A DNA stretch of 56,707 bases, from assembly GCA_048213135.1 (NCBI GenBank), contig PS015044.1, positions 109,604 through 166,310 on the forward strand, written 5' to 3'. Below, piece by piece: positions 3,001 through 56,707 of the stretch (position 1 is its first letter; each line of letters opens with the position of its first letter). Below the pieces are notes generated by a model. That model was not told where the DNA came from. It searched no databases and was given only the letters and a program-made list of their open reading frames with translations. The DNA comes from Reclinomonas americana ATCC 50394 (lineage: Eukaryota). A program made the position numbers and the translations under genes.

Positions 3001-3173
3001 ACTCGTGCCGCTGATGTTGAACGAAGCCTGATTCGTGCCGCCGGTGATCGTGTACGTGAGGGTCTGGCCAGTATTGGGGTCAGTCGACGACAGCGTGCCA
3101 ATCACTCCGTTCAAAGCCAAAGGCGGAGTGTATGTCGACGACGATAAAGTGGGAGCAGTGGGTGGCGTATTCG
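1..3173 (-). repeat. Exon-intron tandem array (unit about 340-350 bp) of cadherin-like domains, 8 units visible
   Basis: Recurrent 279/276-nt exons ending ..ATC AGC/AAC GAA G|GT and starting AG|xx AAY, separated by 57-74 nt introns (one 634-nt intron at 1860-1227 filled with GA/CT microsatellite). Confidence 0.93.
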
Positions 3174-5448: not shown

Positions 5449-5479
<31 letters not shown>

Positions 5480-7450
5480 CGAAGGGGAAGAGACNNNNNN
5501 NNNNNNNNNNNNNNNNNNNNNNNNNNNNNNNNNNNNNNNNNNNNNNNNNNNNNNNNNNNNNNNNNNNNNNNNNNNNNNNNNNNNNNNNNNNNNNNNNNNN
5601 NNNNNNNNNNNNNNNNNNNNNNNNNNNNNNNNNNNNNNNNNNNNNNNNNNNNNNNNNNNNNNNNNNNNNNNNNNNNNNNNNNNNNNNNNNNNNNNNNNNN
5701 NNNNNNNNNNNNNNNNNNNNNNNNNNNNNNNNNNNNNNNNNNNNNNNNNNNNNNNNNNNNNNNNNNNNNNNNNNNNNNNNNNNNNNNNNNNNNNNNNNNN
5801 NNNNNNNNNNNNNNNNNNNNNNNNNNNNNNNNNNNNNNNNNNNNNNNNNNNNNNNNNNNNNNNNNNNNNNNNNNNNNNNNNNNNNNNNNNNNNNNNNNNN
5901 NNNNNNNNNNNNNNNNNNNNNNNNNNNNNNNNNNNNNNNNNNNNNNNNNNNNNNNNNNNNNNNNNNNNNNNNNNNNNNNNNNNNNNNNNNNNNNNNNNNN
6001 NNNNNNNNNNNNNNNNNNNNNNNNNNNNNNNNNNNNNNNNNNNNNNNNNNNNNNNNNNNNNNNNNNNNNNNNNNNNNNNNNNNNNNNNNNNNNNNNNNNN
6101 NNNNNNNNNNNNNNNNNNNNNNNNNNNNNNNNNNNNNNNNNNNNNNNNNNNNNNNNNNNNNNNNNNNNNNNNNNNNNNNNNNNNNNNNNNNNNNNNNNNN
6201 NNNNNNNNNNNNNNNNNNNNNNNNNNNNNNNNNNNNNNNNNNNNNNNNNNNNNNNNNNNNNNNNNNNNNNNNNNNNNNNNNNNNNNNNNNNNNNNNNNNN
6301 NNNNNNNNNNNNNNNNNNNNNNNNNNNNNNNNNNNNNNNNNNNNNNNNNNNNNNNNNNNNNNNNNNNNNNNNNNNNNNNNNNNNNNNNNNNNNNNNNNNN
6401 NNNNNNNNNNNNGAGCGAGGGGGAAGAGCAAGGGGGGAAGAGCAAGGGGGAAGAAATGGCGGAAGAGATGGGGGAAGAGATGGTGGAAGAGATGGGGGAG
6501 ATGGGGGAGATGGGGGAAGAGCGAAGAGAGGGGAGAGCAAATGGAGGAGAGCAAGGGGGAAGAGCAAGAAGGAGAGCAAAGGGGTGAATATAGGGGAAGT
6601 GAAGGCGAGGAAAGGAAAATAAGAGAAAGAGAGAGGGAGAGACGAAGGTAAGATAAAATGGAAACGTGACAGCAGTGGCAGCGAGACAGGAGGTAAAGAG
6701 GCACATAGGTGAGAAACGAAGACCGAGCAATAATAATGCGACGAGTAATCCAGACAGTAGAAAACATCTACATCACATGCCCCATATCCTCGGTGATAAT
6801 CGAACCTCCGGTGCGCGACGAGGTGTTGCCTTGACCACCGTTGCCGCCTTCGCCAGCTGTACCCAGCCCTCCAGCAGCGCTCGTGCCTCCAGGATTACCA
6901 CCACCACTGCCGCCTGTATTACCAGCGGTGTTTCCGCCAGAACCGCCACCACCGCCGCCACCGTTGCACGTCACCACGGCGCCGATAGACGAGTCGCCGC
7001 CGTCCGTGCCGTTGCCGCTGCTGGCGGCTCCCGTACCACCCGCGCCAACAGTAACGGTATACGTCGCGCCAGCAGCCACTGTGTTGGAACCGGAGCGCAC
7101 ACCTCCTCCTCCACCGCCACCGCGACCAAAATAATTGTTTCCGCTGGAAGCTCCGCCGCCGCCACCTCCGCCAGCCACCACCAAGTGCTCGCGATTGATG
7201 CTGCCGGCGGGTATGCTCAGTGTGCCGCTGCTGGTGAATGTGTGCACGGTGTAGGTGAAGCCGCTGGCAACTACGGTGGATATGGTGCCACCGGAGCCGA
7301 GGAGAGTAGTCTGCGCCGAGGCCAGGTCCGACATGGCCACCAGCATGAGCACCAACACGGCCATTGCTGCCACCAATAGCGACGATGGTGGGTGGTGGCG
7401 CGAGGCGAGTCGCGAGCGCGGACGTGCACGCGCGTTGTCACACGAGGTTG
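1..7450 (-). CDS. Giant surface/adhesin-like protein, copy L (hydrophobic leader, Gly-rich domain, Ig-like, IPT-like, cadherin-like repeat array); 3' end runs off the window, true start uncertain
   Basis: Spliced model with GT-AG ends and consistent phase: exons 7450-6806, 5328-4443, 3295-3246, then repeat exons 3173-2895, 2834-2556, 2483-2208, 2139-1861, 1226-948, 890-612, 537-262, 194-<1. Motifs YTVHTFTSSG..VVAGGGGGG..GGSGIVIVRY; LSIQTQPS..QP..D..GLATFSNL; PTYTSFSPTS..TVTGTNL; repeats with IGTL.STD.N..LTYTI.GG....F.I.G..L......V.VSDG. Mirror copy at 38804-56707. Confidence 0.85.
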
Positions 7451-8619
7451 CTGTGGCGCGGGGAGAGTGTGTGTGTGTGAGAGAGAGAAGAGGAGAAACA
7501 GTGTACATGGAAAAGTTAGACAATCGACCGCGGACGAGTGTGCGGGAATCATGCACACTCGCAGAGAAAGGTTGAGAAAGTGTTGTGCAGTGGAGACACG
7601 ACGCGAGGCGAGGGATATCATTGACGGAGTGCAGCGACGGAGATTGGTGGGCAATGAATCAGAGAAAATTAGACACACTGGAAAGAAGTGGTGCAGCATG
7701 AAGGGAACGTGAGGGAGGGAGGAGGATGGAAGGAGGAGGATGGCGGGTGGAGAGCGAGGAAGAGAACGAGCGAGAGAGAGAGAGGATTGCATGTGTCCTC
7801 GAACAATGACATGGGAAACTCAGACAAAAGGAGCGAAACACATGCGTGAGAGGGGAGAGGGGTGAGAGGAGAAGGATGAGGAGGTGGCGGAGTCGTGGAG
7901 AGAAGGAACATAGGAGAGAGAGAGAAAGAGAGGGAGAGATGAGATGACAGAGTTGAGAGAAGATGAATGTGCGTGAGTTTCTGAAAGCGAGAGAGAGTGT
8001 GTGGGAGAGAGGGCGGGAGAGGGGATGAGGAAGGGAGGATGACGAGCGCCTTCCATCCTTTGTGGACACAGACAGGAGATGCACGATGTGCTGGTGCAGC
8101 TTCCGCATCCGCATTTGTCAACCTCTCCCCGAATGTGTGTGCATGCATGATGGATGGACACCGGAGACGCAGGAGGAGGAGGAGGAGAAGAAGAAGAAGA
8201 AGGAGAAAGGGAAGGAGAGGGAGAAGAAGGAGGAGTGTGCGTGTGCCTTAAAACTTATACCTGCAATGAAATCTGGACATGGGATGAGATGCACTTCTCG
8301 TTGGAGAGCACGTAGCCGCATGCGCGCTTGCTATGTGTGTGTTCACAGAGAGAGAAGAACACTCAGAGCGAAGGCAGAGTCGCTCTTCACAGAAGAGAGA
8401 GAGGAGAACAAATGAGGAGTCGATGGAATGGACTGTGGATTCTACTCTTTTCTATGCAGTGCCGTCAACCGCACCGCGGCTTCTTCGTGATACAGTGGGG
8501 GGGTTGGACAACAACGAAATGACTTGAGGTGCGCATTGCCTCCTTTGTCTCTCTCTCTCTCTCTCCATCACACATTGCATTCATTTCCGGTACAACAGAA
8601 TCACATTCACTGTGTGACC
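7451..8619. promoter_or_regulatory. Putative bidirectional promoter/5'UTR region between head-to-head adhesin-like gene and ATPase (may contain an upstream exon)
   Basis: Inferred from divergent gene orientation only; conserved in the mirror arm (37626-38803). No specific promoter motif identified. Confidence 0.4.
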
Positions 8620-15249
<6,630 letters not shown>

Positions 15250-15333
15250 ACAGTGAAGAGTGATGAAGAGAGAAGGGTTTTAGACAACAACAACAGCAAT
15301 TCATTCACCAACACAATGACGACAACAACTTTA

Positions 15334-32293: not shown

Positions 32294-37625
<5,332 letters not shown>

Positions 37626-38803
37626 GGTCACACAGTGAATGTGATTCTGTTGTACCGGAAATGAATGCAATGTGAGAGAGGCAAAGGAGGCAATGCGCAC
37701 CTCAAGTCATCTCGTTGTTGTCAACCCCCCCACTGCACCACGAAGAAGCCGCGGTGGTTGACGGCACTGCATACAAATGAATACAATCCACAGTCCATTC
37801 CATCGACTCCTCATTCTTCTCCTCTCTCTCGTCTGTGAAGAGCGACTCTGCCTTCGCTCTGAGTGTTCTCCTCTCTTTGTGAACACACACACACACAGAC
37901 GTACACATAGCAAGCGCGCATGCGGCTACGTGCTCTCCAACGAGAAGTGCAACTCATCCCATGTCCAGATTTCATTGCAGGTTAAGTTTTAAGGCACACG
38001 CACACTCCTCCTTCTTCTCCCTCTCCTTCCCTTTCTCCTTCTCCTCCTCCTCCTCCTCCTCCTCCTCCTCCTCCTGCGTCTCCGGTGTCCATCCATCATG
38101 CATGCACACACATTCGGGGGGAGGTTGACAAATGCGGATGCGGAAGCTGCACCAGCACATCGTGCATCTCCTGTCTGTGTCCACAAAGGATGGAAGGCGC
38201 TCGTCATCCTCCCTTCCTCCTCTCCTCTCCCGCCCTCTCTCCTCTTCCGCCCACTCTCTCTCTCTCATACAAACTCACGCACATTCATCGTCTCTCGTCT
38301 CTGTCATCTCATCTCTCTCTCTCCATTTCTCTCTCTCTCTCTCTCCTCTGTTCCTTCTCTCCACGACTCCGCCACCTCCTCATCCTTCTCTCACTCCCCT
38401 CTCACGCATCGTGTTTCGCTCCTTTTGTCTGAGTTTCCCTTGTCGTTGTTCGTGGACACATGCAATCCTCTCTCTCTCCCTCGTTCTCTCCCTCGCTCTC
38501 TCCCTCGCTCTCCACCCTCCATCCTCCACCCTCCCTCGCGTTCCCTTCATGCTGCACCACTTCGTTCCAGTGTGTCTAATTTTCACAGATTCATTACCCA
38601 CCTATCTCCGTCGCTGCACTCCGTCAATGATATCCCGCGCCTCGCGTCGTGTCTCCACTGCACAACACTCTCTCAACCTTTCTCTGCGTGTGTGTGCATG
38701 ATTCCCGCACACTCGTCCGCGGTCGATTGTCTAACTTTTCAATGTACACTGTTTTCTCTTCTTCTCTCTCTCTCTGCTCTCATTCTCCCCGCGCGCGACA
38801 CAG

Positions 38804-41800
38804 CAACCTCGCGTGACGACGCGCGCGCACGTCCGCGCTCGCGACTCGCCTCGCACCACCACCCACCATTGTCGCTGTTGGTGGCAGCGACGGCCGTGTT
38901 GGTGCTCATGCTGGTGGCCATGTCGGACCTGGCCTCGGCGCAGACCACTCTCCTCGGCTCCGGTGGCACCATATCCACCGTGGTTTCCGGCGGCTTCACC
39001 TACACCGTGCACACATTCACCAGCAGCGGCACACTGAACATACCCGCCGGCAGCATCAATCGCGAGCACTTGGTGGTGGCCGGCGGTGGCGGAGGCGGCG
39101 GATGTTCCAGCGGAAACAATTACTATGGTCGCGGTGGCGGTGGAGGAGGAGGTGTGCGCTCCGGTTCCAACACGGTGGCTGCTGGCGCGACATATGCCAT
39201 TACCGTTGGCGCTGGCGGCCTGGGAGCCACCAGCAGCGGAAACGGCAATTCCGGCGGCGGCTCTTCCATCGGCGCCGTGGTGACGTGCAACGGTGGTGGC
39301 GGTGGCGGCGGTGCTGGTGGGAATACCGCTGGTAATACAGGCGGCAGTGGCGGCGGCAATCCTGGAGGCACGAGCGCTGCGGGTGGTCTGGGCACAGCTG
39401 GCGAAGGCAGCAATGGTGGTCAAGGCAACACCTCGTCGCGTACTGCAGGTTCGATTATCACCGAGGATGTGGGGCAAGTAGGGTAGATGTGGTATACAGG
39501 ATCATTCGCCGCGTTATTTTTAAAATCGGTCTTCTTTGTCTCGCTGCCACTGCTGTCCATCTTTTCTTGCGTTCCTGCTTCTCCCTCTCTTTCTCTTATT
39601 TTCCTTTCCTCGCCTTCACTTCCCCTATATTCACCCCTTTGCTCTCCTTCTTGCTCTTCCCCCTTGCTCTTCCCCCTTGCTCTTCCCCCTTGCTCTTNNN
39701 NNNNNNNNNNNNNNNNNNNNNNNNNNNNNNNNNNNNNNNNNNNNNNNNNNNNNNNNNNNNNNNNNNNNNNNNNNNNNNNNNNNNNNNNNNNNNNNNNNNN
39801 NNNNNNNNNNNNNNNNNNNNNNNNNNNNNNNNNNNNNNNNNNNNNNNNNNNNNNNNNNNNNNNNNNNNNNNNNNNNNNNNNNNNNNNNNNNNNNNNNNNN
39901 NNNNNNNNNNNNNNNNNNNNNNNNNNNNNNNNNNNNNNNNNNNNNNNNNNNNNNNNNNNNNNNNNNNNNNNNNNNNNNNNNNNNNNNNNNNNNNNNNNNN
40001 NNNNNNNNNNNNNNNNNNNNNNNNNNNNNNNNNNNNNNNNNNNNNNNNNNNNNNNNNNNNNNNNNNNNNNNNNNNNNNNNNNNNNNNNNNNNNNNNNNNN
40101 NNNNNNNNNNNNNNNNNNNNNNNNNNNNNNNNNNNNNNNNNNNNNNNNNNNNNNNNNNNNNNNNNNNNNNNNNNNNNNNNNNNNNNNNNNNNNNNNNNNN
40201 NNNNNNNNNNNNNNNNNNNNNNNNNNNNNNNNNNNNNNNNNNNNNNNNNNNNNNNNNNNNNNNNNNNNNNNNNNNNNNNNNNNNNNNNNNNNNNNNNNNN
40301 NNNNNNNNNNNNNNNNNNNNNNNNNNNNNNNNNNNNNNNNNNNNNNNNNNNNNNNNNNNNNNNNNNNNNNNNNNNNNNNNNNNNNNNNNNNNNNNNNNNN
40401 NNNNNNNNNNNNNNNNNNNNNNNCTCTTCCCCCTTGCTCTTCCCCCTTGCTCTTCCCCCTTGCTCTTCCCCCCTTGCTCTTCCCCCCTTGCTCTTCCCCC
40501 TTGCTCTTCCCCCCTTGCTCTTCCCCCTTGCTCTTCCCCCCTTGCTCTTCCCCCCTTGCTTTTCCCCCCTTGCTCTTCTCCCCTTGCTCTTCCCCCTTGC
40601 TCTTTCCCCCTTGCTCTTCCCCCCTCATTCCCCCTCCTTCCCCTCTCCTTCCCCCTCTTTCCCCTCTCCCGCTTTGCTCTCTCCCCCATGTTCTCCCCCT
40701 TTCCTCTCCTTTCCTCTTCCCCCTTTCCTCTTCCCCCTTGCTCTTCCCCTTTCCTCTTCCCCCTTTCCTCTTTCCCCCTCGCTCTTCCCCCCTTTGCTCC
40801 CCCTCCCTCTCCTTCTTCCCCCTCTCATCCTCCTTCCCTTTATTCCCTCTCTCAGGCGGCGGCGGTGGCGCTGGCGGCAACGGTGCGAACGGCACTTCGA
40901 CCTCTGGCGGCAACGGTGGTGCTGGCGTGTCATCCTCCATTAGCGGCGTCGCAACATTCTACGGTGGTGGCGGCGGCGGTGGCGGTTTCAACATCTCCGG
41001 TGGCAGTGGTGGTACTGGCGGCAGCGGTGTGGGTGGCAATGCACCCAACGGCAAAGCAAATGGGTCCGACTGCGCTGCAAACACGGGTGGTGGCGGTGGC
41101 GGCGCCGGTGGTGATCCAAGCAGCACACCGGCCTCGTCTGGTGGCGACGGCGGCTCTGGCATCGTCATTGTGCGGTACCGAGCACCGGTGCTGTCCATTC
41201 AGACGCAGCCTTCGACGACATCTGCTTCCGGTTCTGCCTTTGCCACGCAACCCGTCATCCTGCTCGTCGATGCGGCCGGTGTGGCGGTCAGCGGAGTTGT
41301 CGTGACGGCTGCGATTCAGAGCGGTACTGGGTCTGTGAGTGGCACGGCGACGGCGACGACGAATGCGTCTGGGCTTGCCACCTTTACGAATTTGGGCATC
41401 ACTGGCACAGGATCGTTCTCCCTCAACTTTACCGTTCCTGGATCCACTAATTCTGTTACCACTACAACGATCACGGTCTCTACCGCGCCCACGTACGCCA
41501 GCTTCTCGCCTACTTCCATCGGCTCCGTCAGCGGCGTGGCGATGACGGTCACGGGTACCAACTTGCAGAATGCGTCAGGCGACTCGGCAGCCTACATCAT
41601 CTCCAGCACCGCCTGCACGTCGCCAACGGCTGTCGGCTCGACCACATCGGTGGCTCCAGTGGCCCCGTTTACTACGGTGGTGATAACGGTCAACGCATCG
41701 TCCATTCCTCCTGGTACAACCTACAAAGTCTGTGCGCGGTGGTACGTTGTTGTTGGTTTCGCAATTCGGGAAATAGGCTCAATCTCTAGCCCTCTGTATT

Positions 41801-44800
41801 CCTTTCTTCCGCTTTCGTTCTCTCTCTCTCTCTCTCTCACCCTTTCTTCTGCATTCGTATTCAGTCACGACACTTATTCTTTCACCGTCCTTCTTTCAGT
41901 GTTTACCTTTCTCACTCTATCTTTCTTGCCTTCAACTTTTCCCACCTTTTCTCTGATATGCCTCAGCATGTTCCATTTTCTCTTCCTCATTTTCCGTCTC
42001 TCTTGCTTCTCGACTCTCGCGCTTACTCATTGCATTCACCATTTTCTTCTCCCGTCGTTCTAAATTCCCATGTCTCCTATCTGCGTCGATGCTTTCTCCT
42101 TGTTTCTCTTTTTCCTCCTTCCCCACTCACTCCCTGTCTTCCTTCTCAATCCATCTCCCCCTTCTCATTCTCGTTGTCCTCATCCTTTCTCCCTGTTTCT
42201 CTCACACTTGTCTGCCCACTCACTCGTCGTCTTACTTCTTTATCCGTCTCACTCGTACCTGTTCCCGTCTCTTCTCCATATCCCTCTTCTCCTCTACCTG
42301 CGTCTCTCCTTACTTGTTTCTCCCGTTCCTTCTTCCTCACTCCCTCCCCTTCTTCCCCCTCTCGTTATCTGTGTACCACTTCTCCGCTCTGTGCGTTTTA
42401 TCTTTCTCCCTTCCTGCTTCTCTGTTTTCTTGTTCTCTCCTCTCCTCTCCTTCCTCTTCTACAATCCCTCGATCCCTCCTTTCCTTCCTTTCTCCATTCT
42501 TTCCCCTTCTTCTTTCCTCCCTCCTTTTCCTTGTCTCCCCTCTCTCTCTGTTGCTCACCCTTCTCCCTCAACCAGGCCATCGACTGGCTCGTACCAGGCC
42601 GTTGGCGCCGCAAGTCTCACAGTCAGTGCGTGTCATCTCCCCGCGCTCGCTCCATGAAGGTCACTGCCATCTCTTACCCTTTTTAAATTGCTGCGTAGCG
42701 AATACGCCACCCACTGCACCCACTCTGTCGTCGTCGACATACACTCCGCCTTTGGCTTTGAACGGAGTGATTGGCACGCTGTCGTCCACCGATCCGAACA
42801 CTGGCCAGACACTGACGTACACGATCACCGGTGGCACAAACCAAGCCTCCTTCAACATCAGTGGCACGAGTCTGCGATCCAATGTGTCTGGTCTCACCGG
42901 TAACAACTTGCAAGTAATTGTGCAAGTGAGCGATGGAGCAGGCGGAACGGCAAGCACCACGTTCACGATCAGCGAAGGTCTGTGTTGCTAGTTGACCGGG
43001 GAGACCGTCCGATTTCATCGCAGTTCCCTTACTTTTCGTATTCGTTGCAGTCAATGTGAATCCGACTGCACCGACGCTGTCCTCCTCAACGTACACGCCG
43101 CCACTTGCATCGAATGGAGTGATCGGCACTCTCGCCTCAACAGACGCCAACACGGGTCAGACTCTCACGTACACCATCACCGGTGGCACCAACTCGGCCT
43201 CCTTCAACATCAGTGGCACGAGTTTGCGGTCAAATGTGGCTGGTCTCACGGGAAACAATCTGCAAGTGACTGTGCAAGTGAGCGATGGAGCAGGTGGTAC
43301 GGCAAGCACGACTTTCACGATCAACGAGGGTTTGTGTTGCTGGTTGACTGGGAGATGATGTCATCGCGGTTTTCTTACTCTTCGTATCCGTTGCAGCGAA
43401 CGTGATTCCGACTGCGCCGACCCTGTCTTCATCGACATACACTCCGCCACTCGCGCTGAATGGCGTGATTGGCACTCTGGCCTCGACTGACCCCAACACG
43501 GGCCAGACACTGACGTACACAATCACCGGTGGCGCCAACTCGGCCTCATTCAACATCAGTGGCACGAGTTTGCGCTCCAATGTGGCCGGTCTCACGGGAA
43601 ACAATCTGCAAGTGATTGTTCAAGTGAGCGATGGAGCGGGCGGAACGGCGAGCGCTACATTTATAATTAGCGAAGGTCTATGTTGTTGATTGGCTTGAGC
43701 ACGAGTCCGTCGCGGTTGGTCACTCTTCGCTTTCGTTGCAGCGAACGTGAATCCGACTGCGCCGACCTTGTCGTCATCGACATACACGCCTCCACTCGCG
43801 CTGAACGGCGTGATTGGCACACTGGCGTCAACCGATGTGAACACGGGTCAGACCCTGACGTACACGATCACCGGTGGTACCAACTCGGCTTCGTTCAACA
43901 TCAGTGGAACGAGTTTGCGATCGAATGTGGCTGGTCTCACGGGGAACAATCTGCAAGTCATCGTGCAAGTGAGCGATGGAGCAGGTGGCACAGCGAGTGC
44001 CACTTTCACCATCAGCGAAGGTGCGCTGTGCTGCACAAGCTTTCAACAAGAGAGTAGCGTGCGTNNNNNNNNNNNNNNNNNNNNNNNNNNNNNNNNNNNN
44101 NNNNNNNNNNNNNNNNNNNNNNNNNNNNNNNNNNNNNNNNNNNNNNNNNNNNNNNNNNNNNNNNNNNNNNNNNNNNNNNNNNNNNNNNNNNNNNNNNNNN
44201 NNNNNNNNNNNNNNNNNNNNNNNNNNNNNNNNNNNNNNNNNNNNNNNNNNNNNNNNNNNNNNNNNNNNNNNNNNNNNNNNNNNNNNNNNNNNNNNNNNNN
44301 NNNNNNNNNNNNNNNNNNNNNNNNNNNNNNNNNNNNNNNNNNNNNNNNNNNNNNNNNNNNNNNNNNNNNNNNNNNNNNNNNNNNNNNNNNNNNNNNNNNN
44401 NNNNNNNNNNNNNNNNNNNNNNNNNNNNNNNNGGGTCGGCGCAGTCGGATTCACGTTCGCTGACATGGTCACGACGAATGAGTCACATACCAAACATACA
44501 ACATCACTCACAAATTCTCGCGCACACCTTCGTTGATGGTAAAGGTTGTCGTCGCCGTCAGCGTTCCATCACTGACGCGCACAATCACTTGCAACCCGTT
44601 GCCCGTAAGACCGGCCACATTCGATCGCAAGCTCGTGCCGTTGATGTTGAAAGAGGCTTGATTCGTGCCGCCCGTGATCGTGTACGTGAGAGTCTGACCA
44701 GTGTTGGGGTCGGTCGAAGCCAGTGTGCCAATCACGCCATTTACAGCCAAAGGCGGAGTGTATGTCGACGAAGAAAGCGTCGGCGCCGTCGGCGCAACAT

Positions 44801-47800
44801 TGACTGTAAAACAAGCAGGATAAGTCAGGNNNNNNNNNNNNNNNNNNNNNNNNNNNNNNNNNNNNNNNNNNNNNNNNNNNNNNNNNNNNNNNNNNNNNNN
44901 NNNNNNNNNNNNNNNNNNNNNNNNNNNNNNNNNNNNNNNNNNNNNNNNNNNNNNNNNNNNNNNNNNNNNNNNNNNNNNNNNNNNNNNNNNNNNNNNNNNN
45001 NNNNNNNNNNNNNNNNNNNNNNNNNNNNNNNNNNNNNNNNNNNNNNNNNNNNNNNNNNNNNNNNNNNNNNNNNNNNNNNNNNNNNNNNNNNNNNNNNNNN
45101 NNNNNNNNNNNNNNNNNNNNNNNNNNNNNNNNNNNNNNNNNNNNNNNNNNNNNNNNNNNNNNNNNNNNNNNNNNNNNNNNNNNNNNNNNNNNNNNNNNNN
45201 NNNNNNNNNTGTCTTCGTCGACATACACTCCGCCTTTGGCTTTGAATGGCGTGATCGGCACTCTGGCATCGACCGACCCCAACACTGGTCAGACGCTGAC
45301 GTACACCATCACGGGTGGCACAAATCAAGCATCGTTCAACATCAACGGCACGAATTTGCGCTCGAATGTGGCTGGCCTCACGGGTAACAATTTGCAAGTG
45401 ATTGTTCAAGTGAGCGATGGAGCAGGCGGAACGGCAACCACGACATTTACCATCAGCGAAGGTACTTGTTGATTCGTACTCGTGTTGCAGGGTTGTGCGT
45501 ACTCATCGCCCGTCACAGTCAATGTTAACCCCACTGCGCCGACCTTGTCTTCGTCAACGTACACACCTCCGCTCGCGCTGAATGGAGCAATCGGCACTCT
45601 GGCGTCAACAGATGCCAACACTGGCCAGACTCTCACCTATACAATCACGGGCGGTACGAATCAGGCATCGTTCAACATCAGTGGTACCAGCTTGCGCTCC
45701 AATGTGGCCGGCCTCACCGGCAACAATCTGCAAGTCATCGTGCAAGTGAGTGATGGAGCAGGTGGAACTGCAAGCGCCACGTTCACCATTAGCGAAGGTG
45801 GGTGATGTCACGGCTTGCTTGCCGGAGTATTTTGGTTTTGCATGACCAATTCTTTTCCTCGCAGTCAATGTTGCGCCAACGGCACCAACACTCTCACCAT
45901 CCACATACACTCCGCCTTTGGCTCTGAATGGCGTGATCGGCACACTGGCTTCGACGGATCCCAACACTGGTCAGACACTGACGTACACCATCACGGGCGG
46001 CACGAATCAAGCCTCTTTCAACATCAGTGGAACCAGTCTGCGATCAAATGTGGCCGGTCTTACTGGCAACGGGTTGCAAGTGATTGTGCGCGTCAGTGAC
46101 GGAACGCTGACGGCAACGACAACCTTCACCATCAACGAAGGTGTGCGCGAGAATTTGTGAGTGATGTGATGTATTTGCTCTCTGACTCATTCGTCGTGAC
46201 CATATCAGCGAACGTGAATCCGACTGCGCCGACACTGTCTTCATCGACATACACGCCTCCACTTGCGCTGAATGGAGTGATCGGCACGCTTGCGTCGACA
46301 GATGTCAACACGGGTCAGACTCTCACCTATACCATCACCGGTGGCACCAACTCGGCATCGTTCAACATCAGTGGCACCAGTCTGCGATCCAACATTGCTG
46401 GNNNNNNNNNNNNNNNNNNNNNNNNNNNNNNNNNNNNNNNNNNNNNNNNNNNNNNNNNNNNNNNNNNNNNNNNNNNNNNNNNNNNNNNNNNNNNNNNNNN
46501 NNNNNNNNNNNNNNNNNNNNNNNNNNNNNNNNNNNNNNNNNNNNNNNNNNNNNNNNNNNNNNNNNNNNNNNNNNNNNNNNNNNNNNNNNNNNNNNNNNNN
46601 NNNNNNNNNNNNNNNNNNNNNNNNNNNNNNNNNNNNNNNNNNNNNNNNNNNNNNNNNNNNNNNNNNNNNNNNNNNNNNNNNNNNNNNNNNNNNNNNNNNN
46701 NNNNNNNNNNNNNNNNNNNNNNNNNNNNNNNNNNNNNNNNNNNNNNNNNNNNNNNNNNNNNNNNNNNNNNNNNNNNNNNNNNNNNNNNNNNNNNNNNNNN
46801 NNNNNNNNNNNNNNNNNNNNNNNNNNNNNNNNNNNNNNNNNNNNNNNNNNNNNNNNNNNNNNNNNNNNNNCAAACACTGGCCAAACTCTCACCTACACCA
46901 TCACGGGCGGCACGAATCAGGCATCGTTCAACATCAGTGGTACCAGCTTGCGCTCCAATGTGGCCGGTCTCACGGGGAACAATCTGCAAGTCATCGTGCA
47001 AGTGAGCGATGGAGCAGGTGGAACGGCAAGCGCGACGTTCACCATCAGCGAAAGTTCGTTGTGATCCACCAGCTTCAACGACCGAGTAGTATGTGTCGTG
47101 ATTAATTCTGTTTTGTGTTCCAGTCAACGTTGCGCCCACCGCACCAACTCTGTCGCCATCCACATACACTCCGCCTTTGGCTCTGAACGGCGTGGTCGGC
47201 ACTCTGGCGTCGACCGACCCCAACACCGGTCAGACTCTCACCTACACTATCACGGGCGGCACGAATCAAGCCTCCTTCAACATCAACGGCACTAGCTTGC
47301 GATCAAATGTCGCTAGCCTGTCGGGTAACGGGCTGCAAGTTATCGTTCAAGTGAGCGACGGAACGCTGACGGCGACCACAACATTTACCATCAACGAAGG
47401 TGATGTTTGAGCTTGTTTTGACTCGTCGTGTGACGTATTCTCACGATGCTTCTTGCTCTCAAATCAGCCAACGTGAATCCGACGACACCGACGTTATCAC
47501 CGACAACTTACACTCCGCCGCTTTCCATGAACAATGTGATTGGCACTCTGGCGTCAACAGATGTGAACACCGGTCAGACGCTGACGTACACCATCACCGG
47601 TGGTACCAACTCGGCTTCGTTCAACATCAGTGGCACCAGTTTGAGGTCAAACCTTCTCAGCTTCACGGGTAGCAATCTGCAAGTGATTGTGCAAGTGAGC
47701 GATGGGGCTGGTGGAACAGCAAGTGCCACTTTCACGATCAACGAAGGCATGTTGGCTTGATGTTGTTTTCATGTCGTTACCTCCTGATAACGAAGTTGTT

Positions 47801-50800
47801 ACAGTCAATGTTAACCCAACTGCGCCGACCTTGTCGTCGTCGACGTACACGCCTCCGCTCGCGCTGAATGGCGCAATCGGCACTCTGGCATCCACGGACG
47901 CAAACACAGGTCAGACCCTGACGTACACGATCACCGGTGGCACCAACTCGGCATCGTTCAACATCAGTGGCACCAGTCTGCGCTCGAATGTGGCTGGTCT
48001 CACCGGCAACAATCTGCAAGTGATTGTGCAAGTGAGTGATGGAGCAGGTGGAACGGCAAGCACGACGTTCACCATCAGCGAAGGTGCGTTGTGCTCCACA
48101 AGCTTGCAACGACCGCGAAGTATATGTGTCGTGTTAATTTTGTTTTTTTGTTACAGTTAATGTTGCGCCAACGGCACCAACACTCTCACCATCCACATAC
48201 ACTCCGCCTTTGGCTCTGAATGGCGTGATTGGCACACTGACTTCGACCGACCCCAACACTGGTCAGACGCTGACGTACACGATCACGGGCGGCACGAATC
48301 AAGCCTCTTTCAACATCAGTGGAACCAGCTTGCGATCGAATGTGGCCGGCCTCACGGGCAACAATCTGCAAGTGATTGTGCGAGTGAGTGACGGAACGCT
48401 GACGGCAACGACAACCTTCACCATCAACGAAGGTGTGCGCGAGACCCCGTGTGTGATGTCATGTGTTTGCTCTGTGACTCATTCGTCGTGACCATGTCAG
48501 CGAACGTGAATCCGACTGCACCGACCTTGTCTTCATCGACATACACTCCGCCGCTTGCCTCGAATGGAGTTATCGGCACTCTGGCGTCGACTGATGCCAA
48601 CACGGGTCAGACACTGACGTACACCATCACCGGTGGCGCGAATCAAGCGTCGTTCAACATCAGCGGCACCAGTTTGCGATCGAATGTAGCAGGTCTTACG
48701 GGTAACAATCTGCAAGTGATTGTGCAAGTGAGCGATGGAGCAGGAGGAACGGCAAGCACGACGTTCACGATCAATGAGGGTCTGTGTTATCGGTTGTTAT
48801 GGAGAACGAGTTCATCGCGGTTTGCTTACTCTTTGTATCCGTTGCAGCGAACGTGAATCCAACTGCACCGACCCTGTCGTCATCGACATACACTCCACCA
48901 CTTGCCTCGAATGGAGTGATAGGCACTCTGGCGTCGACTGATGTCAACACTGGTCAGACGTTTACGTATACGATCACCGGCGGCACCAACTCGGCTTCGT
49001 TCAACATCAGTGGCACCAGTCTGCGATCCAGCATTGCTGGTCTTACTGGCAACAATCTGCAAGTGATTGTGCAAGTGAGCGATGGGGCTGGTGGAACAGC
49101 AAGTGCCACTTTCACGATCAACGAAGGCATGTTGGCTTGATCTCGTATTCTTGTCGTCGCATCCTCTTGACAATGTCGTTACAGTCAATGTTAACCCTAC
49201 TGCGCCGACCTTGTCGTCGTCGACGTACACGCCTCCGCTCGCGCTGAATGGCGCAATCGGCACTCTGGCATCCACGGACGCAAACACGGGTCAGACCCTG
49301 ACGTACACGATCACCGGTGGCACCAACTCGGCATCGTTCAACATCAGTGGCACCAGTCTGCGCTCGAATGTGGCCGGCCTCACCGGCAACAATCTGCAAG
49401 TCATCGTGCAAGTGAGTGATGGAGCAGGTGGAACTGCAAGCGCCACGTTCACCATTAGCGAAGGTGGGTGATGTCACGGCTTGCTTGCCGGAGTATTTTG
49501 GTTTTGCATGACCAATTCTTTTCCTCGCAGTCAATGTTGCGCCAACGGCACCAACACTCTCACCATCCACATACACTCCGCCTTTGGCGCTGAATGGCGT
49601 GATTGGCACACTGGCTTCGACCGACCCCAACACTGGTCAGACGCTGACGTACACGATCACGGGCGGCACGAATCAAGCCTCTTTCAACATCAGTGGAACC
49701 AGCTTGCGATCGAATGTGGCCGGCCTCACGGGCAACAATCTGCAAGTGATTGTGCGAGTGAGTGACGGAACGCTGACGGCAACGACAACCTTCACCATCA
49801 ACGAAGGTGTGCGCGAGACCCCGTGATTAATGATGTTCTGTGTTTGCTCTGTGACTCATTCGTCGTGACCATGTCAGCGAACGTGAATCCGACTGCACCG
49901 ACCCTGTCTTCGTCAACGTACACGCCGCCTTTGGCTTTGAATGGAGTGATCGGCACTCTGGCGTCGACTGATGTGAACACTGGTCAGACTCTGACGTACA
50001 CGATCACTGGCGGCACGAATCAAGCCTCCTTCAACATCAACGGCACCAGTTTGCGATCCAGCATTGCTGGCCTCACTGGCAACAATCTGCAAGTGATTGT
50101 GCAAGTGAGCGACGGAGCAGGCGGAACGGCAAGTACGACATTCACGATCAATGAGGGTCTGTTAGTGGTTGATTGATTTGGGAACGAGTTTATTGTGGTT
50201 TGCTTACTCTTTGTATCCGTTGCAGCGAACGTGAATCCAACTGCACCGACCTTGTCTTCGTCAACGTACACTCCGCCTTTGGCTTTGAATGGAGTTATCG
50301 GCACTCTGGCGTCGACTGATGTCAACACTGGTCAGACGTTTACGTATACGATCACCGGCGGCACGAATCAGGCTTCATTCAACATCAGCGGCACCAGTCT
50401 GCGATCCAACATTGCTGGCCTCACTGGCAACAATCTGCAAGTGATTGTGCAAGTGAGCGACGGAGCAGGTGGAACTGCGAGCACCACGTTTACGATCAAT
50501 GAGGGTTTGTTGTTGTTGATTGAATTGGGGACAAGTTCATCGCAATTTGCTCACTCTTCGTATTTGTTGCAGCGAACGTGAATCCGACTGCGCCGACCCT
50601 GTCTTCGTCGACATACACTCCGCCGCTTGCCTCGAATGGAGTGATCGGCACTCTGGCATCGACGGATGCCAACACTGGTCAGACACTGACGTACACCATC
50701 ACGGGTGGCACGAATCAAGCGTCATTCAACATCAGCGGCACCAGTTTACGATCCAACATTGCTGGCCTCACTGGCAACAATCTGCAAGTGATTGTGCAAG

Positions 50801-53800
50801 TGAGCGACGGAGTAGGTGGAACAGCAAGCACCACGTTTACGATCAATGAGGGTCTGCGTTATTTGGTGATATGGGGGGAACGAGTTCATCGCGATTTGCT
50901 CACTCTTCGTATTTGTTGCAGCGAACGTGAATCCGACTGCGCCGACCCTGTCTTCGTCGACATACACTCCGCCGCTTGCCTCGAATGGAGTGATCGGCAC
51001 TCTGGCATCGACGGATGCCAACACGGGTCAGACCCTGACGTACACCATCACCGGCGGCACGAATCAGGCATCATTCAACATTAATGGCACCAGTTTACGA
51101 TCCAACATTGCTGGCCTCACTGGCAACAACTTGCAAGTGATTGTGCAAGTGAGCGACGGAGCAGGTGGCACAGCGAGTGCCACTTTCACGATCAGCGAAG
51201 GCATGTTGGCTTTATGTTCTTTCTACTCATCTCGTCGCCTCCTGATAACATAGTTGTTACAGTCAATGTTAACCCTACTGCGCCGACCTTGTCGTCATCG
51301 ACATACACGCCTCCACTCGCGCTGAACGGCGTGATTGGCACACTGGCGTCAACAGATGTGAACACGGGTCAGACCCTGACGTACACCATCACCGGCGGCA
51401 CGAATCAGGCATCATTCAACATTAATGGCACCAGTTTACGATCCAACATTGCTGGCCTCACTGGCAACAACTTGCAAGTGATTGTTCAAGTGAGCGATGG
51501 AGCAGGTGGCACAGCGAGTGCCACTTTNNNNNNNNNNNNNNNNNNNNNNNNNNNNNNNNNNNNNNNNNNNNNNNNNNNNNNNNNNNNNNNNNNNNNNNNN
51601 NNNNNNNNNNNNNNNNNNNNNNNNNNNNNNNNNNNNNNNNNNNNNNNNNNNNNNNNNNNNNNNNNNNNNNNNNNNNNNNNNNNNNNNNNNNNNNNNNNNN
51701 NNNNNNNNNNNNNNNNNNNNNNNNNNNNNNNNNNNNNNNNNNNNNNNNNNNNNNNNNNNNNNNNNNNNNNNNNNNNNNNNNNNNNNNNNNNNNNNNNNNN
51801 NNNNNNNNNNNNNNNNNNNNNNNNNNNNNNNNNNNNNNNNNNNNNNNNNNNNNNNNNNNNNNNNNNNNNNNNNNNNNNNNNNNNNNNNNNNNNNNNNNNN
51901 NNNNNNNNNNNNNNNNNNNNNNNNNNNNNNNNNNNNNNNNNNNNNNNNNNNNNNNNNNNNNNNNNNNNNNNNNNNNNNNNNNNNNNNNNNNNNNNNNNNN
52001 NNNNNNNNNNNNNNNNNNNNNNNNNNNNNNNNNNNNNNNNNNNNNNNNNNNNNNNNNNNNNNNNNNNNNNNNNNNNNNNNNNNNNNNNNNNNNNNNNNNN
52101 NNNNNNNNNNNNNNNNNNNNNNNNNNNNNNNNNNNNNNNNNNNNNNNNNNNNNNNNNNNNNNNNNNNNNNNNNNNNNNNNNNNNNNNNNNNNNNNNNNNN
52201 NNNNNNNNNNNNNNNNNNNNNNNNNNNNNNNNNNNNNNNNNNNNNNNNNNNNNNNNNNNNNNNNNNNNNNNNNNNNNNNNNNNNNNNNNNNNNNNNNNNN
52301 NNNNNNNNNNNNNNNNNNNNNNNNNNNNNNNNTTTCTTCGTCGACATACACTCCGCCGCTTGCCTCGAATGGAGTGATCGGCACCCTGTCATCGACGGAT
52401 GTCAACACTGGTCAGACGCTGACGTACACCATCACGGGTGGCACGAATCAGGCCTCCTTCAACATCAGCGGCACCAGCTTGCGATCCAGCATTGCTGGCC
52501 TCACTGGCAACAATCTGCAAGTGATTGTGCAAGTGAGTGANNNNNNNNNNNNNNNNNNNNNNNNNNNNNNNNNNNNNNNNNNNNNNNNNNNNNNNNNNNN
52601 NNNNNNNNNNNNNNNNNNNNNNNNNNNNNNNNNNNNNNNNNNNNNNNNNNNNNNNNNNNNNNNNNNNNNNNNNNNNNNNNNNNNNNNNNNNNNNNNNNNN
52701 NNNNNNNNNNNNNNNNNNNNNNNNNNNNNNNNNNNNNNNNNNNNNNNNNNNNNNNNNNNNNNNNNNNNNNNNNNNNNNNNNNNNNNNNNNNNNNNNNNNN
52801 NNNNNNNNNNNNNNNNNNNNNNNNNNNNNNNNNNNNNNNNNNNNNNNNNNNNNNNNNNNNNNNNNNNNNNNNNNNNNNNNNNNNNNNNNNNNNNNNNNNN
52901 NNNNNNNNNNNNNNNNNNNNNNNNNNNNNNNNNNNNNNNNNNNNNNNNNNNNNNNNNNNNNNNNNNNNNNNNNNNNNNNNNNNNNNNNNNNNNNNNNNNN
53001 NNNNNNNNNNNNNNNNNNNNNNNNNNNNNNNNNNNNNNNNNNNNNNNNNNNNNNNNNNNNNNNNNNNNNNNNNNNNNNNNNNNNNNNNNNNNNNNNNNNN
53101 NNNNNNNNNNNNNNNNNNNNNNNNNNNNNNNNNNNNNNNNNNNNNNNNNNNCGGAGCAGGTGGAACGGCAAGCACCACGTTCACGATCAATGAGGGTCTG
53201 CGTTATTTGGTGATATGGGGGGAACGAGTTCATCGCGATTTGCTCACTCTCGTATCTGTTGCAGCGAACGTGAATCCGACTGCGCCGACCCTGTCTTCGT
53301 CGACATACACTCCGCCGCTTGCCTCGAATGGTGTGATCGGCACTCTGGCATCGACGGATGTCAACACGGGTCAGACGCTGACGTACACCATCACGGGTGG
53401 CACGAATCAGGCATCATTCAACATCAGCGGCTCCAGCTTGCGATCCAGCATTGCTGGCCTCACTGGCAACAATCTGCAAGTGATTGTGCAAGTGAGCGAC
53501 GGAGCAGGTGGAACAGCAAGCACCACGTTCACGATCAATGAGGGTCTGCGTTATTTGGTGATATGGGGGGAACGAGTTCATCGCGATTTGCTCACTCTTC
53601 GTATCTGTTGCAGCGAACGTGAATCCGACTGCGCCGACCTTGTCGTCATCGACATACACGCCTCCACTCGCGCTGAACGGTGTGATTGGCACACTGGCGT
53701 CAACCGATGTGAACACGGGTCAGACCCTGACGTACACGATCACCGGTGGTACCAACTCGGCTTCGTTCAACATCAGTGGCACCAGTCTGCGCTCGAATGT

Positions 53801-56707
53801 GGCTGGCCTCACGGGGAACAATCTGCAAGTGATTGTTCAAGTGAGCGATGGAGCAGGTGGCACAGCGAGTGCCACATTNNNNNNNNNNNNNNNNNNNNNN
53901 NNNNNNNNNNNNNNNNNNNNNNNNNNNNNNNNNNNNNNNNNNNNNNNNNNNNNNNNNNNNNNNNNNNNNNNNNNNNNNNNNNNNNNNNNNNNNNNNNNNN
54001 NNNNNNNNNNNNNNNNNNNNNNNNNNNNNNNNNNNNNNNNNNNNNNNNNNNNNNNNNNNNNNNNNNNNNNNNNNNNNNNNNNNNNNNNNNNNNNNNNNNN
54101 NNNNNNNNNNNNNNNNNNNNNNNNNNNNNNNNNNNNNNNNNNNNNNNNNNNNNNNNNNNNNNNNNNNNNNNNNNNNNNNNNNNNNNNNNNNNNNNNNNNN
54201 NNNNNNNNNNNNNNNNNNNNNNNNNNNNNNNNNNNNNNNNNNNNNNNNNNNNNNNNNNNNNNNNNNNNNNNNNNNNNNNNNNNNNNNNNNNNNNNNNNNN
54301 NNNNNNNNNNNNNNNNNNNNNNNNNNNNNNNNNNNNNNNNNNNNNNNNNNNNNNNNNNNNNNNNNNNNNNNNNNNNNNNNNNNNNNNNNNNNNNNNNNNN
54401 NNNNNNNNNNNNNNNNNNNNNNNNNNNNNNNNNNNNNNNNNNNNNNNNNNNNNNTGGAGCAGGCGGAACAGCAAGCACGACATTCACGATCAACGAGGGT
54501 GCGTGTACGCTCCGCTTTTTAAGCCGTTCAGTGTGACATATGTATGGTTTATGTCCTCACCATTTCGCAGCTAATGTTGCGCCGAGTGCTCCGACGCTGT
54601 CCTCCTCGACGTACACTCCGCCGCGCGTTCTCAACGGAACAATTGGCACGCTGTCGTCTACGGACCCCAACACTGGCCAGACGCTGACTTACACGATCAC
54701 GGGTGGCACGAATCAAGCATCATTCAACATCAGTGGCACGAGTTTGCAATCGAATGTGTCCGGTCTCACGGGTAACAATCTGCAAGTGATTGTGCAAGTG
54801 AGCGATGGAGCAGGTGGAACAGCAAGTGCCACATTCACCATCAGCGAAGGTGAGCATGCCTTCGAGTACTTCATGCTGTGCTTACCTGTCTCAGTCGCTG
54901 ACGCCGCGCTGCACAGCCAACGTGGTCCCCACTGCTCCGGCTCTGTCATCGACCACGTACACCCCGCCTCTCGCTTTGAATGGTGTGATTGGCACATTGT
55001 CGTCGACAGACCCGAACACGGGTCAGACACTCGTATTTTCCATTGTTGGTGGCACCAACTCTGCCTCGTTCAACATCAGCGGCACCAACCTGCGATCCAA
55101 TGTGGCAGGCCTCACTGGCAACAGCCTGCAAGTGATTGTGCAAGTGAGCGACGGTGCCGGTGGTGTGAATACGACAACGTTCAACATGTCTGAAGGTAAG
55201 GCGATGCATTTGTTGTTCACTCTTACTCCAGTGCATCACACGCGTTTATGAGCGCAGTCAATGTGGTACCCACTGCGCCGACACTCTCCACCAACTTGTA
55301 CGTGGCGCCGCTCGCGCTGAACGGAGTAATTGGCACTCTGGCGTCAACCGATGTCAACACCGGTCAGACACTGACCTTCTCCATCACCGGCGGCACCAAC
55401 TCGGCATCATTCAACATCAGCGGCACGAGTCTACGCTCAAGTGTGTCTGGCCTCACCGGTAACGGACTGCAAGTGATTGTCACTGTCAGCGACGGTGCTG
55501 GCGGAACTCGCTCGTCCACATTCAACATCTCGGAAGGTTCGTGTGACGCAGATGACTTATTAAGAGATCGCCCTTGGTGCGCTGACTCTCCTCCTGCAGC
55601 CAACATGAGCCCTACGGTCCCCGTCTTGTCGACAACGCTGTACACGCCGCCGCGTGCTCTGAATGGCGTGATTGGCACTCTCTCCGCAACACCTGCCGTG
55701 GCTGGTGACACGCTCACATTCTCGATCACTGGTGGCGCCAACCAAGCATCCTTCAACATTAGTGGCACGGACCTGCGTTCCAACGTCGCGGGCCTTGTCG
55801 GGAACAACTTGCATGTTGAGATCACTGTCACGGCCAGCTCCGGTGGCACGAACTCCTTCGTATTCGACATTGATGAGCGTTGCGTCTGTTGATCCTGTTC
55901 CTTATTTGTTTATCTGTGTTGTTGTTCACCGCCGTGGCTGCAGTCAACGTGATACCAACTGCACCAACGCTGTCGTCGTCGACATATGTGCCGCCACTGG
56001 CACTTGGCGGCGTCATTGGCATGCTGTCGTCGACAGACCCAAACTCGGGGCAGTCGTTGACTTACTATGTCTCTGGCGGCACCAATCAGTCTCTGTTTTC
56101 AGTCAGTGGTGGGAACAGCCTCGTGACAGCAGTGTCGAATCTGACGGGCAACAGCCTGCAAGTGATCGTCACAGTCGACGATGGAGCAGGCGGCACCAAC
56201 ACTGCGACATTCCTCATCAACGAAGGTTGGAGCGACGCGCACTGCGCTCGTCTCTCTTGTCCTCACTGACCCATCGTTCTTGTGTCTTACGTAGCTAATG
56301 TGAACCCGACGGCGCCCACTCTGTCAAGCAGCACTTACACCCCACCACTCGCCACAAATGGCGTCATTGGCACTCTCGCCTCGACAGACGCCAACACGGG
56401 CCAGACGCTGACGTACACCATCACGGGCGGCACGAACTCGGGATCGTTCAACATCAGCGGCAGCAGCTTGCGGTCGAATGTGGCAGGACTCACCGGCAAC
56501 AGCCTGCAAGTGATTGTGCAAGTGAGCGATGGAGCAGGTGGCACCAACACGTCCACGTTCACCATCAGCGAAGGTCCGTGTGGTGGCTTGTTCCTTTGCT
56601 TCTTCCCTTTTGCACCCGCTCATTCGCACACTCTGTTGCCTTTGTGACAGCCAACGTTGTGCCGACGCCGCCGACTCTATCCACCTCGACGTACACTCCA
56701 CCACTGG
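38804..56707 (+). CDS. Giant surface/adhesin-like protein, copy R, with roughly 34 cadherin-like repeats visible; 3' end off the window, start uncertain
   Basis: Exons 38804-39448, 40856-41741, 42576-42625, then repeat exons starting at 42699, 43051, 43397, 43742, (44803 and 44459 on a flipped contig), 45519, 45865, 46209, 47124, 47468, 47805, 48157, 48501, 48848, 49185, 49531, 49878, 50226, 50573, 50922, 51263, 53265, 53614, 54571, 54917, 55258, 55600, 55944, 56295, 56651, plus gap-truncated units. No in-exon stop seen. Confidence 0.86.
39650..40625 (+). repeat. Intronic 12-13 bp minisatellite (CCCC[C]TTGCTCTT)n spanning a gap
   Basis: Visible on both sides of the gap; related GGGGAAGAGCAA/GGGGAGAT units at 6412-6570 in the mirror arm. 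Confidence 0.88.
42699..56707 (+). repeat. Exon-intron tandem array of cadherin-like domains (unit about 340-350 bp)
   Basis: 279/276-nt (once 282-nt) exons separated by 57-77 nt introns belonging to a few recurring sequence families. Confidence 0.95.

Follow-up and report, generated by a model that had tools for sequence, protein, structure and literature searches.

A 56,707-base stretch of contig PS015044.1 from Reclinomonas americana ATCC 50394 (hereafter "the window", to which all coordinates refer) carries two intron-rich eukaryotic paralogues that, in the reading we regard as probable, encode a giant secreted or surface protein made up entirely of modules of bacterial type, derived from an old transfer from bacteria and now serving as an adhesin. 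In the copy located on the forward strand, the interval 38804..42977 had been described in an original prediction as an intron-containing eukaryotic gene for a protein built from phage- and bacterial-type surface modules. Both ends of this interval are exact exon edges (a pyrimidine tract and CACAG stand directly before 38804, and the first repeat exon ends at 42977, with GT next), but the interval holds only the head of a far larger gene, whose repeat array continues to position 56707 and beyond.

The exon-intron model was derived from stop-to-stop frames and from the raw sequence of the window, which contains 16 gaps filled with N. The resulting features are listed in Table 1. The motifs quoted in the prediction were all recovered in the expected frame: YTVHTFTSSG, VVAGGGGG and ITVGAGG in exon 1 and GGSGIVIVRY, LSIQTQPS, FATQPV and NASGLATFTNL in exon 2. 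The introns are of the GT-AG type, except for two GC-AG introns, and their phases are compatible across the gene, as expected for a eukaryotic intron-containing gene. The 50-base exon 3 is predicted from its sequence and from its phases, which match those of exon 2 (phase 2) and of the first repeat (phase 1). The C+T content of intron 1 is 0.74-0.94. We considered the possibility that this intron is read through as a linker rich in proline, leucine and serine and rejected it, since an in-frame TAG is present at 39484-39486, 36 bases inside the intron, and the exons are colinear with bacterial proteins. The CTCTTCCCCCTTG microsatellite (period 14, ca. 28 copies, C+T 0.94), which makes up most of intron 1, flanks the N gap at 40424-40799 and 39600-39697 and probably caused the assembly break there; the paralogue has a gap of its own at the equivalent place of its intron 1 (5495-6412). 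The search of Rfam with the whole window retrieved no families, and no NCBIfam family was found for any of the three pieces searched.

Table 1. Positions of the predicted features of the giant gene, its paralogue and the neighbouring genes in the window.
Feature	Position	Strand	Remarks
Exon 1: hydrophobic leader and N-terminal half of Gly_rich_2	38804..39448	+	donor G/GTTCGA at 39448/39449, phase 1
Intron 1, C/T-rich, splits the Gly_rich_2 domain	39449..40855	+	CTCTTCCCCCTTG-type 14-base microsatellite; N gap 39698-40423
Exon 2: C-terminal half of Gly_rich_2, Ig domain and most of the IPT-like domain	40856..41741	+	donor GTACGT, phase 2
Subdivisions of exon 2	Gly_rich_2 ~40856-41181; Ig ~41185-41487; IPT-like 41488-41741	+	
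Intron 2, C/T-rich	41742..42575	+	donor GTACGT, phase 2
Exon 3 (predicted), 50 bases, closes the IPT-like domain	42576..42625	+	..PSTGSYQAVGAASLTV..; acceptor CAG 42573-42575, donor GTGCGT 42626, phase 1
Intron 3, 73 bases	42626-42698	+	
Repeat array, 32 units visible	42699..56707, runs off window end	+	tblastn with unit 1; unit boundaries and donors
One repeat unit in opposite orientation, 397-base piece between two N gaps	44433..44829	-	tblastn match 44801..44565
Paralogous gene, same exon order	7552..1, runs off window start	-	tblastn
Paralogue, match to leader/Gly exon	7552-6957	-	tblastn
Paralogue, exon 2	5328-4443	-	
Paralogue, repeats, eight units	3171 to 1	-	
ENA-type P-type cation ATPase gene, with introns	32297..37706	-	Pfam E1-E2_ATPase, Cation_ATPase_N, Cation_ATPase, Cation_ATPase_C
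Duplicate ATPase gene	8491-15246	+	same four Pfam families

The head of the protein belongs, by profile, to the Pfam family Gly_rich_2 (PF21722). Exon 1 matched profile positions 3-148 (E = 3e-8, 34.4 bits) and exon 2 matched positions 135-226 of 226 (E = 1.1e-5, 26.0 bits), both above the gathering cut-off of 24.3 bits. The family phrog_2295 of the PHROGs collection is divided in the same manner: exon 1 covers its positions 556-732 and exon 2 its positions 738-870. When the exons are aligned with bacterial homologues, the end of exon 1 and the start of exon 2 fall into adjacent columns of the bacterial protein P0018. It follows that a single intact domain is interrupted by intron 1 and that the N gap of this intron conceals none of it; the Pfam profile, phrog_2295 and P0018 agree that the whole domain is present and colinear. 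Exon 1 additionally matches three tail-fibre families of PHROGs (phrog_863, phrog_6202 and phrog_454), so that the claim of a phage-like, Gly_rich_2-like domain was borne out. The same is true of the leader, ..RSRLASHHHPPLSLLVAATAVLVLMLVAMSDLASA/QTT, which is indeed hydrophobic (Kyte-Doolittle mean of 2.95 over 15 residues, LLVAATAVLVLMLVA). No match was obtained with the exon 1 head in a tblastn search of 50,697 phage records; the low-complexity filter is the probable cause, since the PHROGs profiles do match.

To predict the fold of the head, P0018 (37% identical to exon 1 and 46% identical to exon 2) was modelled by AlphaFold from an alignment of 40 rows, among them both window exons. The mean predicted local distance difference test (pLDDT) score of the model was 80.6, reaching 90-98 across the glycine-rich domain; exon 2 modelled alone gave low confidence for its half of Gly_rich_2. 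When the P0018 model was compared with ca. 48,000 representative PDB chains, two matches stood clear of the rest: the fibre of cyanophage Pam3 (7ypx_A; Z 15.2, root mean square deviation 2.4 A over 176 residues, 35% identity) and the tail tip of mycobacteriophage Bxb1 (9d93; Z 14.2-14.6). Intimin, which matches the immunoglobulin-like (Ig) domain, came next. By homology, the head of the window protein would be a TNF-like beta-sandwich on which glycine-rich extended strands form a lattice, as in the receptor-binding tips of phage fibres. Searches of PDB by sequence gave no match for exon 2 and a single weak one, to protocadherin-10 (E = 0.0023), for the bacterial homologue, and the ESM Atlas search with exon 2 gave no usable match.

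The Pam3 and Bxb1 tips (7YPX and 9D93) share their fold with the modelled bacterial homologue of the head. In the excerpts available of the Pam3 report (PMC9608196), the TNF-like sandwich of gp24 is described as extending into a lattice in which twelve glycine-rich strands are arranged in four layers, with a conserved glycine-rich stem and a variable distal tip proposed to bind the host receptor, and gp24 is likened to gp38 of Salmonella phage S16 and to C. elegans ALK; the excerpted text of a preprint on polyproline-II bundles names the same few examples from nature (10.1101/2023.11.25.568672). Chains of S16 gp38, ALK or LTK were not among the matches listed by Foldseek or VIA-align, which does not exclude them. 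The phage tips form the short trimeric ends of fibres and carry a helical docking domain at their N-terminus, whereas in the window protein a hydrophobic leader directly precedes a head that is N-terminal in a giant, monomer-like repeat protein. The window protein is a Gly_rich_2 member by profile; since the docking helix is missing from its predicted sequence, it is not a phage fibre protein. It works like a phage tip at most; by analogy, the head and the phage tips probably perform the same kind of task.

The Ig domain (residues 110-210 of exon 2) was modelled by AlphaFold with pLDDT of ca. 90. Intimin chains top the structural ranking of this model (Z 11.1-12.0), with 6tpl_B (D0-D1; Z 11.7, 2.2 A over 94 residues) and 1f02 (Z 11.1) as examples, and the velvet, Runt and Rel-homology/NF-kB folds are found within 1 Z unit, so that the fold alone does not decide the Ig class. 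In Pfam, exon 2 had no match to Big_1 at E<=1, and the only hits of its Ig domain, DUF7382 (E = 7.6e-4, 19.7 bits against a cut-off of 27.4) and MG4 (E = 0.18), were below cut-off; the homologous Ig repeats of bacterial P0008 do match Big_1 (E = 2e-10). The earlier assignment to a Big-1-like class thus agrees with the intimin-type fold, which ranks first, but not with the family profile, and by fold the model suggests an Ig domain of the intimin/invasin kind. The domain that follows, called IPT-like in the prediction, is unconfirmed: there was no match to Pfam TIG (PF01833) at E<=1 and no relevant sequence match in PDB, its pLDDT was low (ca. 40-57), and its alignment by hhalign with the TIG domain of bacterial P0043 (42% identity over 60 columns, E = 0.0016) received a probability of only 16%.

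Further downstream, tblastn with repeat unit 1 identified 32 units on the forward strand between position 42701 and the window end. Each unit consists of one exon of ca. 276 bases and a phase-1 intron of 61-75 bases. There are six N gaps within the array, with a total length of 3,209 bases; these would provide space for ca. 9 further units, the gap sizes being estimates. The single unit found in opposite orientation (Table 1) most probably belongs to a small contig that was built into the scaffold in reverse. An alignment of 21 units had a mean column identity of 89%, and seven of the eight matches retrieved from PDB with its profile at E<=1 were chains of the cadherin superfamily, protocadherin-15 being the best (E = 1.9e-4); the eighth was a phage virion protein (E = 0.47). 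In Pfam, a single unit was closest to Big_9 (E = 1.3e-3, below cut-off) and Cadherin_CELSR2_9th (E = 0.053) and had no match to Cadherin (PF00028) at E<=1. The unit is, on the other hand, 45% identical to those of bacterial P0392, which itself matches PF00028 at E = 1.9e-61. These results support the predicted cadherin-like nature of the repeats and place them closest to bacterial cadherin-domain proteins. Memberships in Big_1, TIG and Cadherin are not established by Pfam for the window protein as translated from our model.

The bacterial cadherin-repeat proteins have units of ca. 92-100 residues that are 38-53% identical to the window unit; P0392 carries S-layer homology domains, and P0390 and P0391 carry a gliding-motility-associated C-terminal domain. 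The calcium-binding motifs at cadherin junctions are acidic, of the DxD and DxNDN type. By eye, the linkers of the bacterial units read TD.D.G and VTDVNE, whereas the consensus of the window units, each of which is a separate exon, reads TD.NTG and NVNPTAP. Two of the repeat introns start with GC rather than GT (GAAG/GCATGTTGG, at 48850-49200 and 50924-51270), a GC-AG variant copied within the array. A higher-order pattern is also observed at 45512-46400, 48150-48850 and 49178-49871, where VSDGTLTATTTFTINEG-ending units and particular intron sequences recur in the same order, which indicates that blocks of several units were duplicated.

The paralogue allowed us to estimate the constraint on the coding sequence. 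Both copies use the same donor and acceptor sites. The tblastn identity between them is 84% for exon 1 (with a query that included a non-coding upstream part) and 93% for exon 2, and the identity of coding DNA is 90.8% and 90.6%, respectively. There are no gaps between the copies in 541 exon 1 and 886 exon 2 bases, while 68 of 176 and 47 of 834 intron positions are gapped (the latter being intron 2, which is 87.4% identical). The ratio of nonsynonymous to synonymous substitution rates (Ka/Ks) is 0.205 for exon 1 (Ks 0.24) and 0.15 for exon 2 (Ks 0.27). Within the array, 15 complete units (105 pairs) gave a median Ka of 0.046 and a median Ks of 0.93, i.e., Ka/Ks of ca. 0.05. Since the units retain ca. 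90% protein identity while their synonymous sites are near saturation, the array must be old and under strong purifying selection, and the low Ka/Ks ratios of both the paralogues (0.15-0.2) and the repeats argue that the gene is functional. The head differs between the paralogues more than the Ig and IPT-like domains do (28 of 277 versus 9 of 186 residues, Fisher p=0.053), with changes in short runs; this contrast is only suggestive.

In the adhesin that we propose, the mature N-terminus would be the glycine-rich head, followed by the intimin-like Ig domain, a further beta-sandwich and a stalk of at least 32 cadherin-like domains. A cadherin-like unit is roughly 4.5 nm long, and the stalk would thus measure ca. 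150-200 nm for ca. 40 units. If the protein is anchored at its C-terminus, the stalk would hold the head far from the cell, and variable loop ends of the head would bind a surface ligand, as in the phage fibre tips; the targets could be surfaces, other cells or bacterial prey. A more specific version, according to which a bacterivorous or surface-dwelling protist has adopted the receptor-binding module with which phages and bacteria recognise bacterial envelopes and displays it on such a stalk for recognition or capture of prey, with two heads directed at different targets, is in our opinion speculative and rather doubtful.

An extracellular protein other than an adhesin (a structural coat, scale, sheath or matrix component, or a protein of self-recognition or mating in which the head is a stable cap) is unlikely, though of some weight. 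The near-uniform repeats, with their Ka/Ks of ca. 0.05, would suit a structural polymer; P0392, whose S-layer homology domains were mentioned above, is the closest bacterial cadherin-repeat protein; and glycine-rich polyproline-II bundles occur in unrelated roles, antifreeze proteins and enzymes among them, as stated in the excerpted preprint (10.1101/2023.11.25.568672). On the other side, the closest solved folds of the head are host-recognition tips of phages, the Ig domain is probably of the kind found in the intimin and invasin adhesins, and the higher divergence of the head between the paralogues points, weakly, towards a specificity-determining tip.

We next turn to the origin of the gene. 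The protein databases searched were prokaryote-dominated and did not contain the host proteome. Among longer proteins, exon 2 had 349 matches at E<=1e-3. Eight of the 120 matches listed carried an organism name, and all eight were bacterial; none of these 120 came from the eukprot source, a collection that did yield matches for the neighbouring ATPase. Several bacterial proteins share the order leader, GSGGT..Y.(V/I)HT(F/Y)T, Gly_rich_2 lattice, GGSGIVI(V/I)RY(K/R)AP and TQPS-type Ig, with 46-55% identity to the window protein by BLASTP and 41-47% in the multiple alignment. When one genome per prokaryotic species was searched, all 18 confirmed loci were bacterial; since this collection consists of prokaryotes, the outcome names candidates and is no test of eukaryotes. 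The highest identities were those of Chitinophagaceae/Bacteroidota (53-55%), along with Pseudohongiella, Pseudomonadales and other Gammaproteobacteria (45-55%). Three loci in viral contigs match the glycine-rich part only, and of 34 loci in metagenome contigs nearly all match the Ig part only and none exceeds 59% identity. A HMMER search of 1.84 billion representatives with the mature head of exon 1 retrieved 6010 proteins at E<=1e-3 (best identity, 49%). With the repeat unit, 57 proteins were found, 13 of them with an organism name: 12 bacterial and one from Aduncisulcus paluster. In a maximum-likelihood tree of 35 rows and 222 columns, the two window copies form a pair (98/95) inside the bacterial radiation.

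The closest relatives are thus prokaryotic and the gene is nested in prokaryotic diversity, with eukaryotes thinly sampled; it contains introns, and unbroken sequence joins it to the ENA-type ATPase gene, which has introns as well. There is thus good support for a transfer from bacteria, after which introns were acquired and the gene expanded within the eukaryote, and the claim of horizontal acquisition stands as far as head and Ig relatives of known origin and the nesting in the tree are concerned. An old rather than a recent transfer is also supported. In the history that we propose, the cassette of head and Ig, and probably the cadherin unit as well, would have entered the eukaryotic lineage from bacteria long ago; spliceosomal introns would then have been gained and the unit of exon plus intron multiplied. 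Since the introns belong to the repeated unit, this multiplication would have taken place within the eukaryote. The locus would later have been duplicated in inverted orientation, along with the neighbouring ATPase gene.

We consider it improbable that the family is instead an old, vertically inherited eukaryotic one, or that it passed from eukaryotes to bacteria, and that its bacterial look reflects poor sampling of protists. The near-saturated Ks of the repeats and the long branch to bacteria would indeed agree with a long residence in the lineage, the protein databases do not cover the host lineage, one of the cadherin-like relatives bears a metamonad label, and animal ALK has a structurally related TNF-like plus glycine-rich module, according to the excerpts of PMC9608196. 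Against this, the 120 homologues listed include none from the eukaryote collection and the named ones are bacterial without exception, the order leader-Gly_rich_2-Ig is common to several bacterial phyla, the 6010 representatives together with the phage tail-fibre families point to a prokaryotic or phage home, the window pair lies inside and not outside bacterial diversity, and no locus from the metagenome scan exceeded 59% identity. An artefact (contaminating bacterial DNA or a chimeric scaffold joined to eukaryotic DNA), which the 16 N gaps, the wrongly oriented repeat piece and the bacterial look of all domains might suggest, is very improbable, because introns must be spliced out to restore a frame colinear with bacterial proteins, each repeat forms an exon of its own, bounded by splice signals, the sequence is continuous with a conserved upstream region and the intron-containing eukaryote-type ATPase gene (no N gap between 31066 and 39697), and the gene exists in two copies that have diverged and are both under purifying selection.

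The bacterial surface proteins with Gly_rich_2 and Ig domains are the closest known counterparts of the window genes. They include P0014, P0017-P0019, L003 (from a Chitinophagaceae metagenome-assembled genome) and P0008, which is identical to L009 (from a Pseudomonadales metagenome-assembled genome), and the likeness in leader-lattice-junction-Ig order and in sequence extends over ca. 210 residues. Their genes are uninterrupted and continue into more Ig repeats or into different short C-terminal domains. In contrast, the window genes reside in a eukaryotic genome, are interrupted by introns and add an IPT-like domain together with no fewer than 32 cadherin-like repeats.

Several points weigh against the interpretation of the gene as a transferred bacterial cassette that now encodes an adhesin. 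Splicing, the start codon and expression of the window gene are predictions, and a start at ATG 38908 would leave just MLVAMSDLASA as a leader. The glycine-rich strand lattice and its match to phage tips were obtained with the bacterial homologue and not with the window's own head. The C-terminus, the site of any anchor, lies beyond the window end, and the role of the protein as an adhesin is putative. The acidic calcium-binding motifs of the repeats look partly replaced by eye, and the stalk may not behave like cadherin. As to the origin, relatives in related eukaryotes could be missed in the databases used, and the 6010 relatives of the glycine-rich domain, the best 10 included, were counted without organism names. 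A partial protein labelled as coming from the metamonad Aduncisulcus paluster (P0420), which has no Pfam family, contains a cadherin-like unit 46% identical to that of the window; this may be another eukaryote with the bacterial-type repeat, or else the protein may stem from bacterial DNA contaminating that assembly. In the tree, the window pair nests among bacterial sequences but has no supported bacterial sister: the nearest row, P0043 (a Gly_rich_2 and TIG protein), joins at 91/71, and the path to the nearest bacterial rows is ca. 1.3 changes per site. Neither the donor nor the direction of transfer is therefore proven.

The 5' end of the gene deserves a comment. Position 38804 is probably a true splice acceptor (CACAG at 38799-38803), because indels relative to the paralogue stop exactly there, and the true start may lie in an upstream exon spliced to this acceptor. 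The first in-frame ATG downstream of 38804 is at 38908. A start at ATG 38698 was ruled out, since the paralogue is frame-shifted by indels between 38698 and 38803. An upstream mini-exon (ATG in CAATGATATCC, donor CTGC/GTGTGT) was also rejected, its donor and phase not being conserved in the paralogue by eye. The forward strand reads ACG at 38890-38894 (..VAATAVLV..), whereas the paralogue has an in-frame ATG at 7360-7364 on the reverse strand (..VAAMAVLVLMLVAM..), and the two copies may use different start codons if translation begins inside exon 1. The upstream region 38300-38697 (7951-7553 in the other arm) is 94.0% identical between the copies, compared to 90.8% for the coding exon and 86.7% for the intron, which suggests a shared promoter, 5' untranslated region or short upstream exon, or else recent gene conversion.

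The two copies are part of an inverted duplication with 85-93% identity between its arms (3757-15468 and 42420-32071). Both arms contain the adhesin-like gene head to head with an intron-containing gene of an ENA-type P-type cation ATPase. The best outside homologue of the ATPase is 54% identical, followed by those of Tetraselmis, Chromera and Andalucia (39-48%), and the homologues with names are eukaryotic or fungal ENA-type pumps. GC content at third codon positions is 0.65 in the head exons, close to the 0.72-0.77 of the ATPase gene. Between the arms lie ca. 16.6 kb of unique sequence, in which none of the long open frames matches a Pfam family. The arms may represent either a genuine palindromic segmental duplication or two diverged segments of different haplotypes that scaffolding brought together.

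Bacterial genes are known to have been transferred into protists and to have gained introns afterwards. A giant multi-exon surface protein made wholly of bacterial modules, with a head of the phage-grip type, would be a different case from these known transfers. Our survey of open-access papers and preprints found none on a eukaryotic Gly_rich_2 protein and none naming Gly_rich_2 or PF21722. In the animal receptor kinases ALK and LTK, a TNF-like plus glycine-rich module binds the ligand, and the window protein would be the second such case among eukaryotic extracellular proteins. The Pfam family of the ALK type, which we take to be the one named Gly_rich, was not among the matches of the window protein at E<=1, and the window domain groups with the Gly_rich_2 of bacteria and phages.

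The locus offers a clear natural example of the gain of an intron at an exact site of a formerly continuous bacterial domain, of the conversion of a domain into a symmetrical phase-1 exon suited to multiplication, and of the way in which a eukaryote could put such a module to use in recognising surfaces. Binding of bacterial surfaces by the head, if it occurs, would link host recognition by phages with feeding of protists and would provide a tractable eukaryotic system for an unusual fold. Should the prey-capture version be true, the two heads, which differ mainly in short runs of glycine-rich loops, would be the equivalent, in a eukaryote, of host-range variation in phages, and eukaryotic surface biology would have received the TNF-like plus glycine-rich fold a second time, independently of ALK and LTK.

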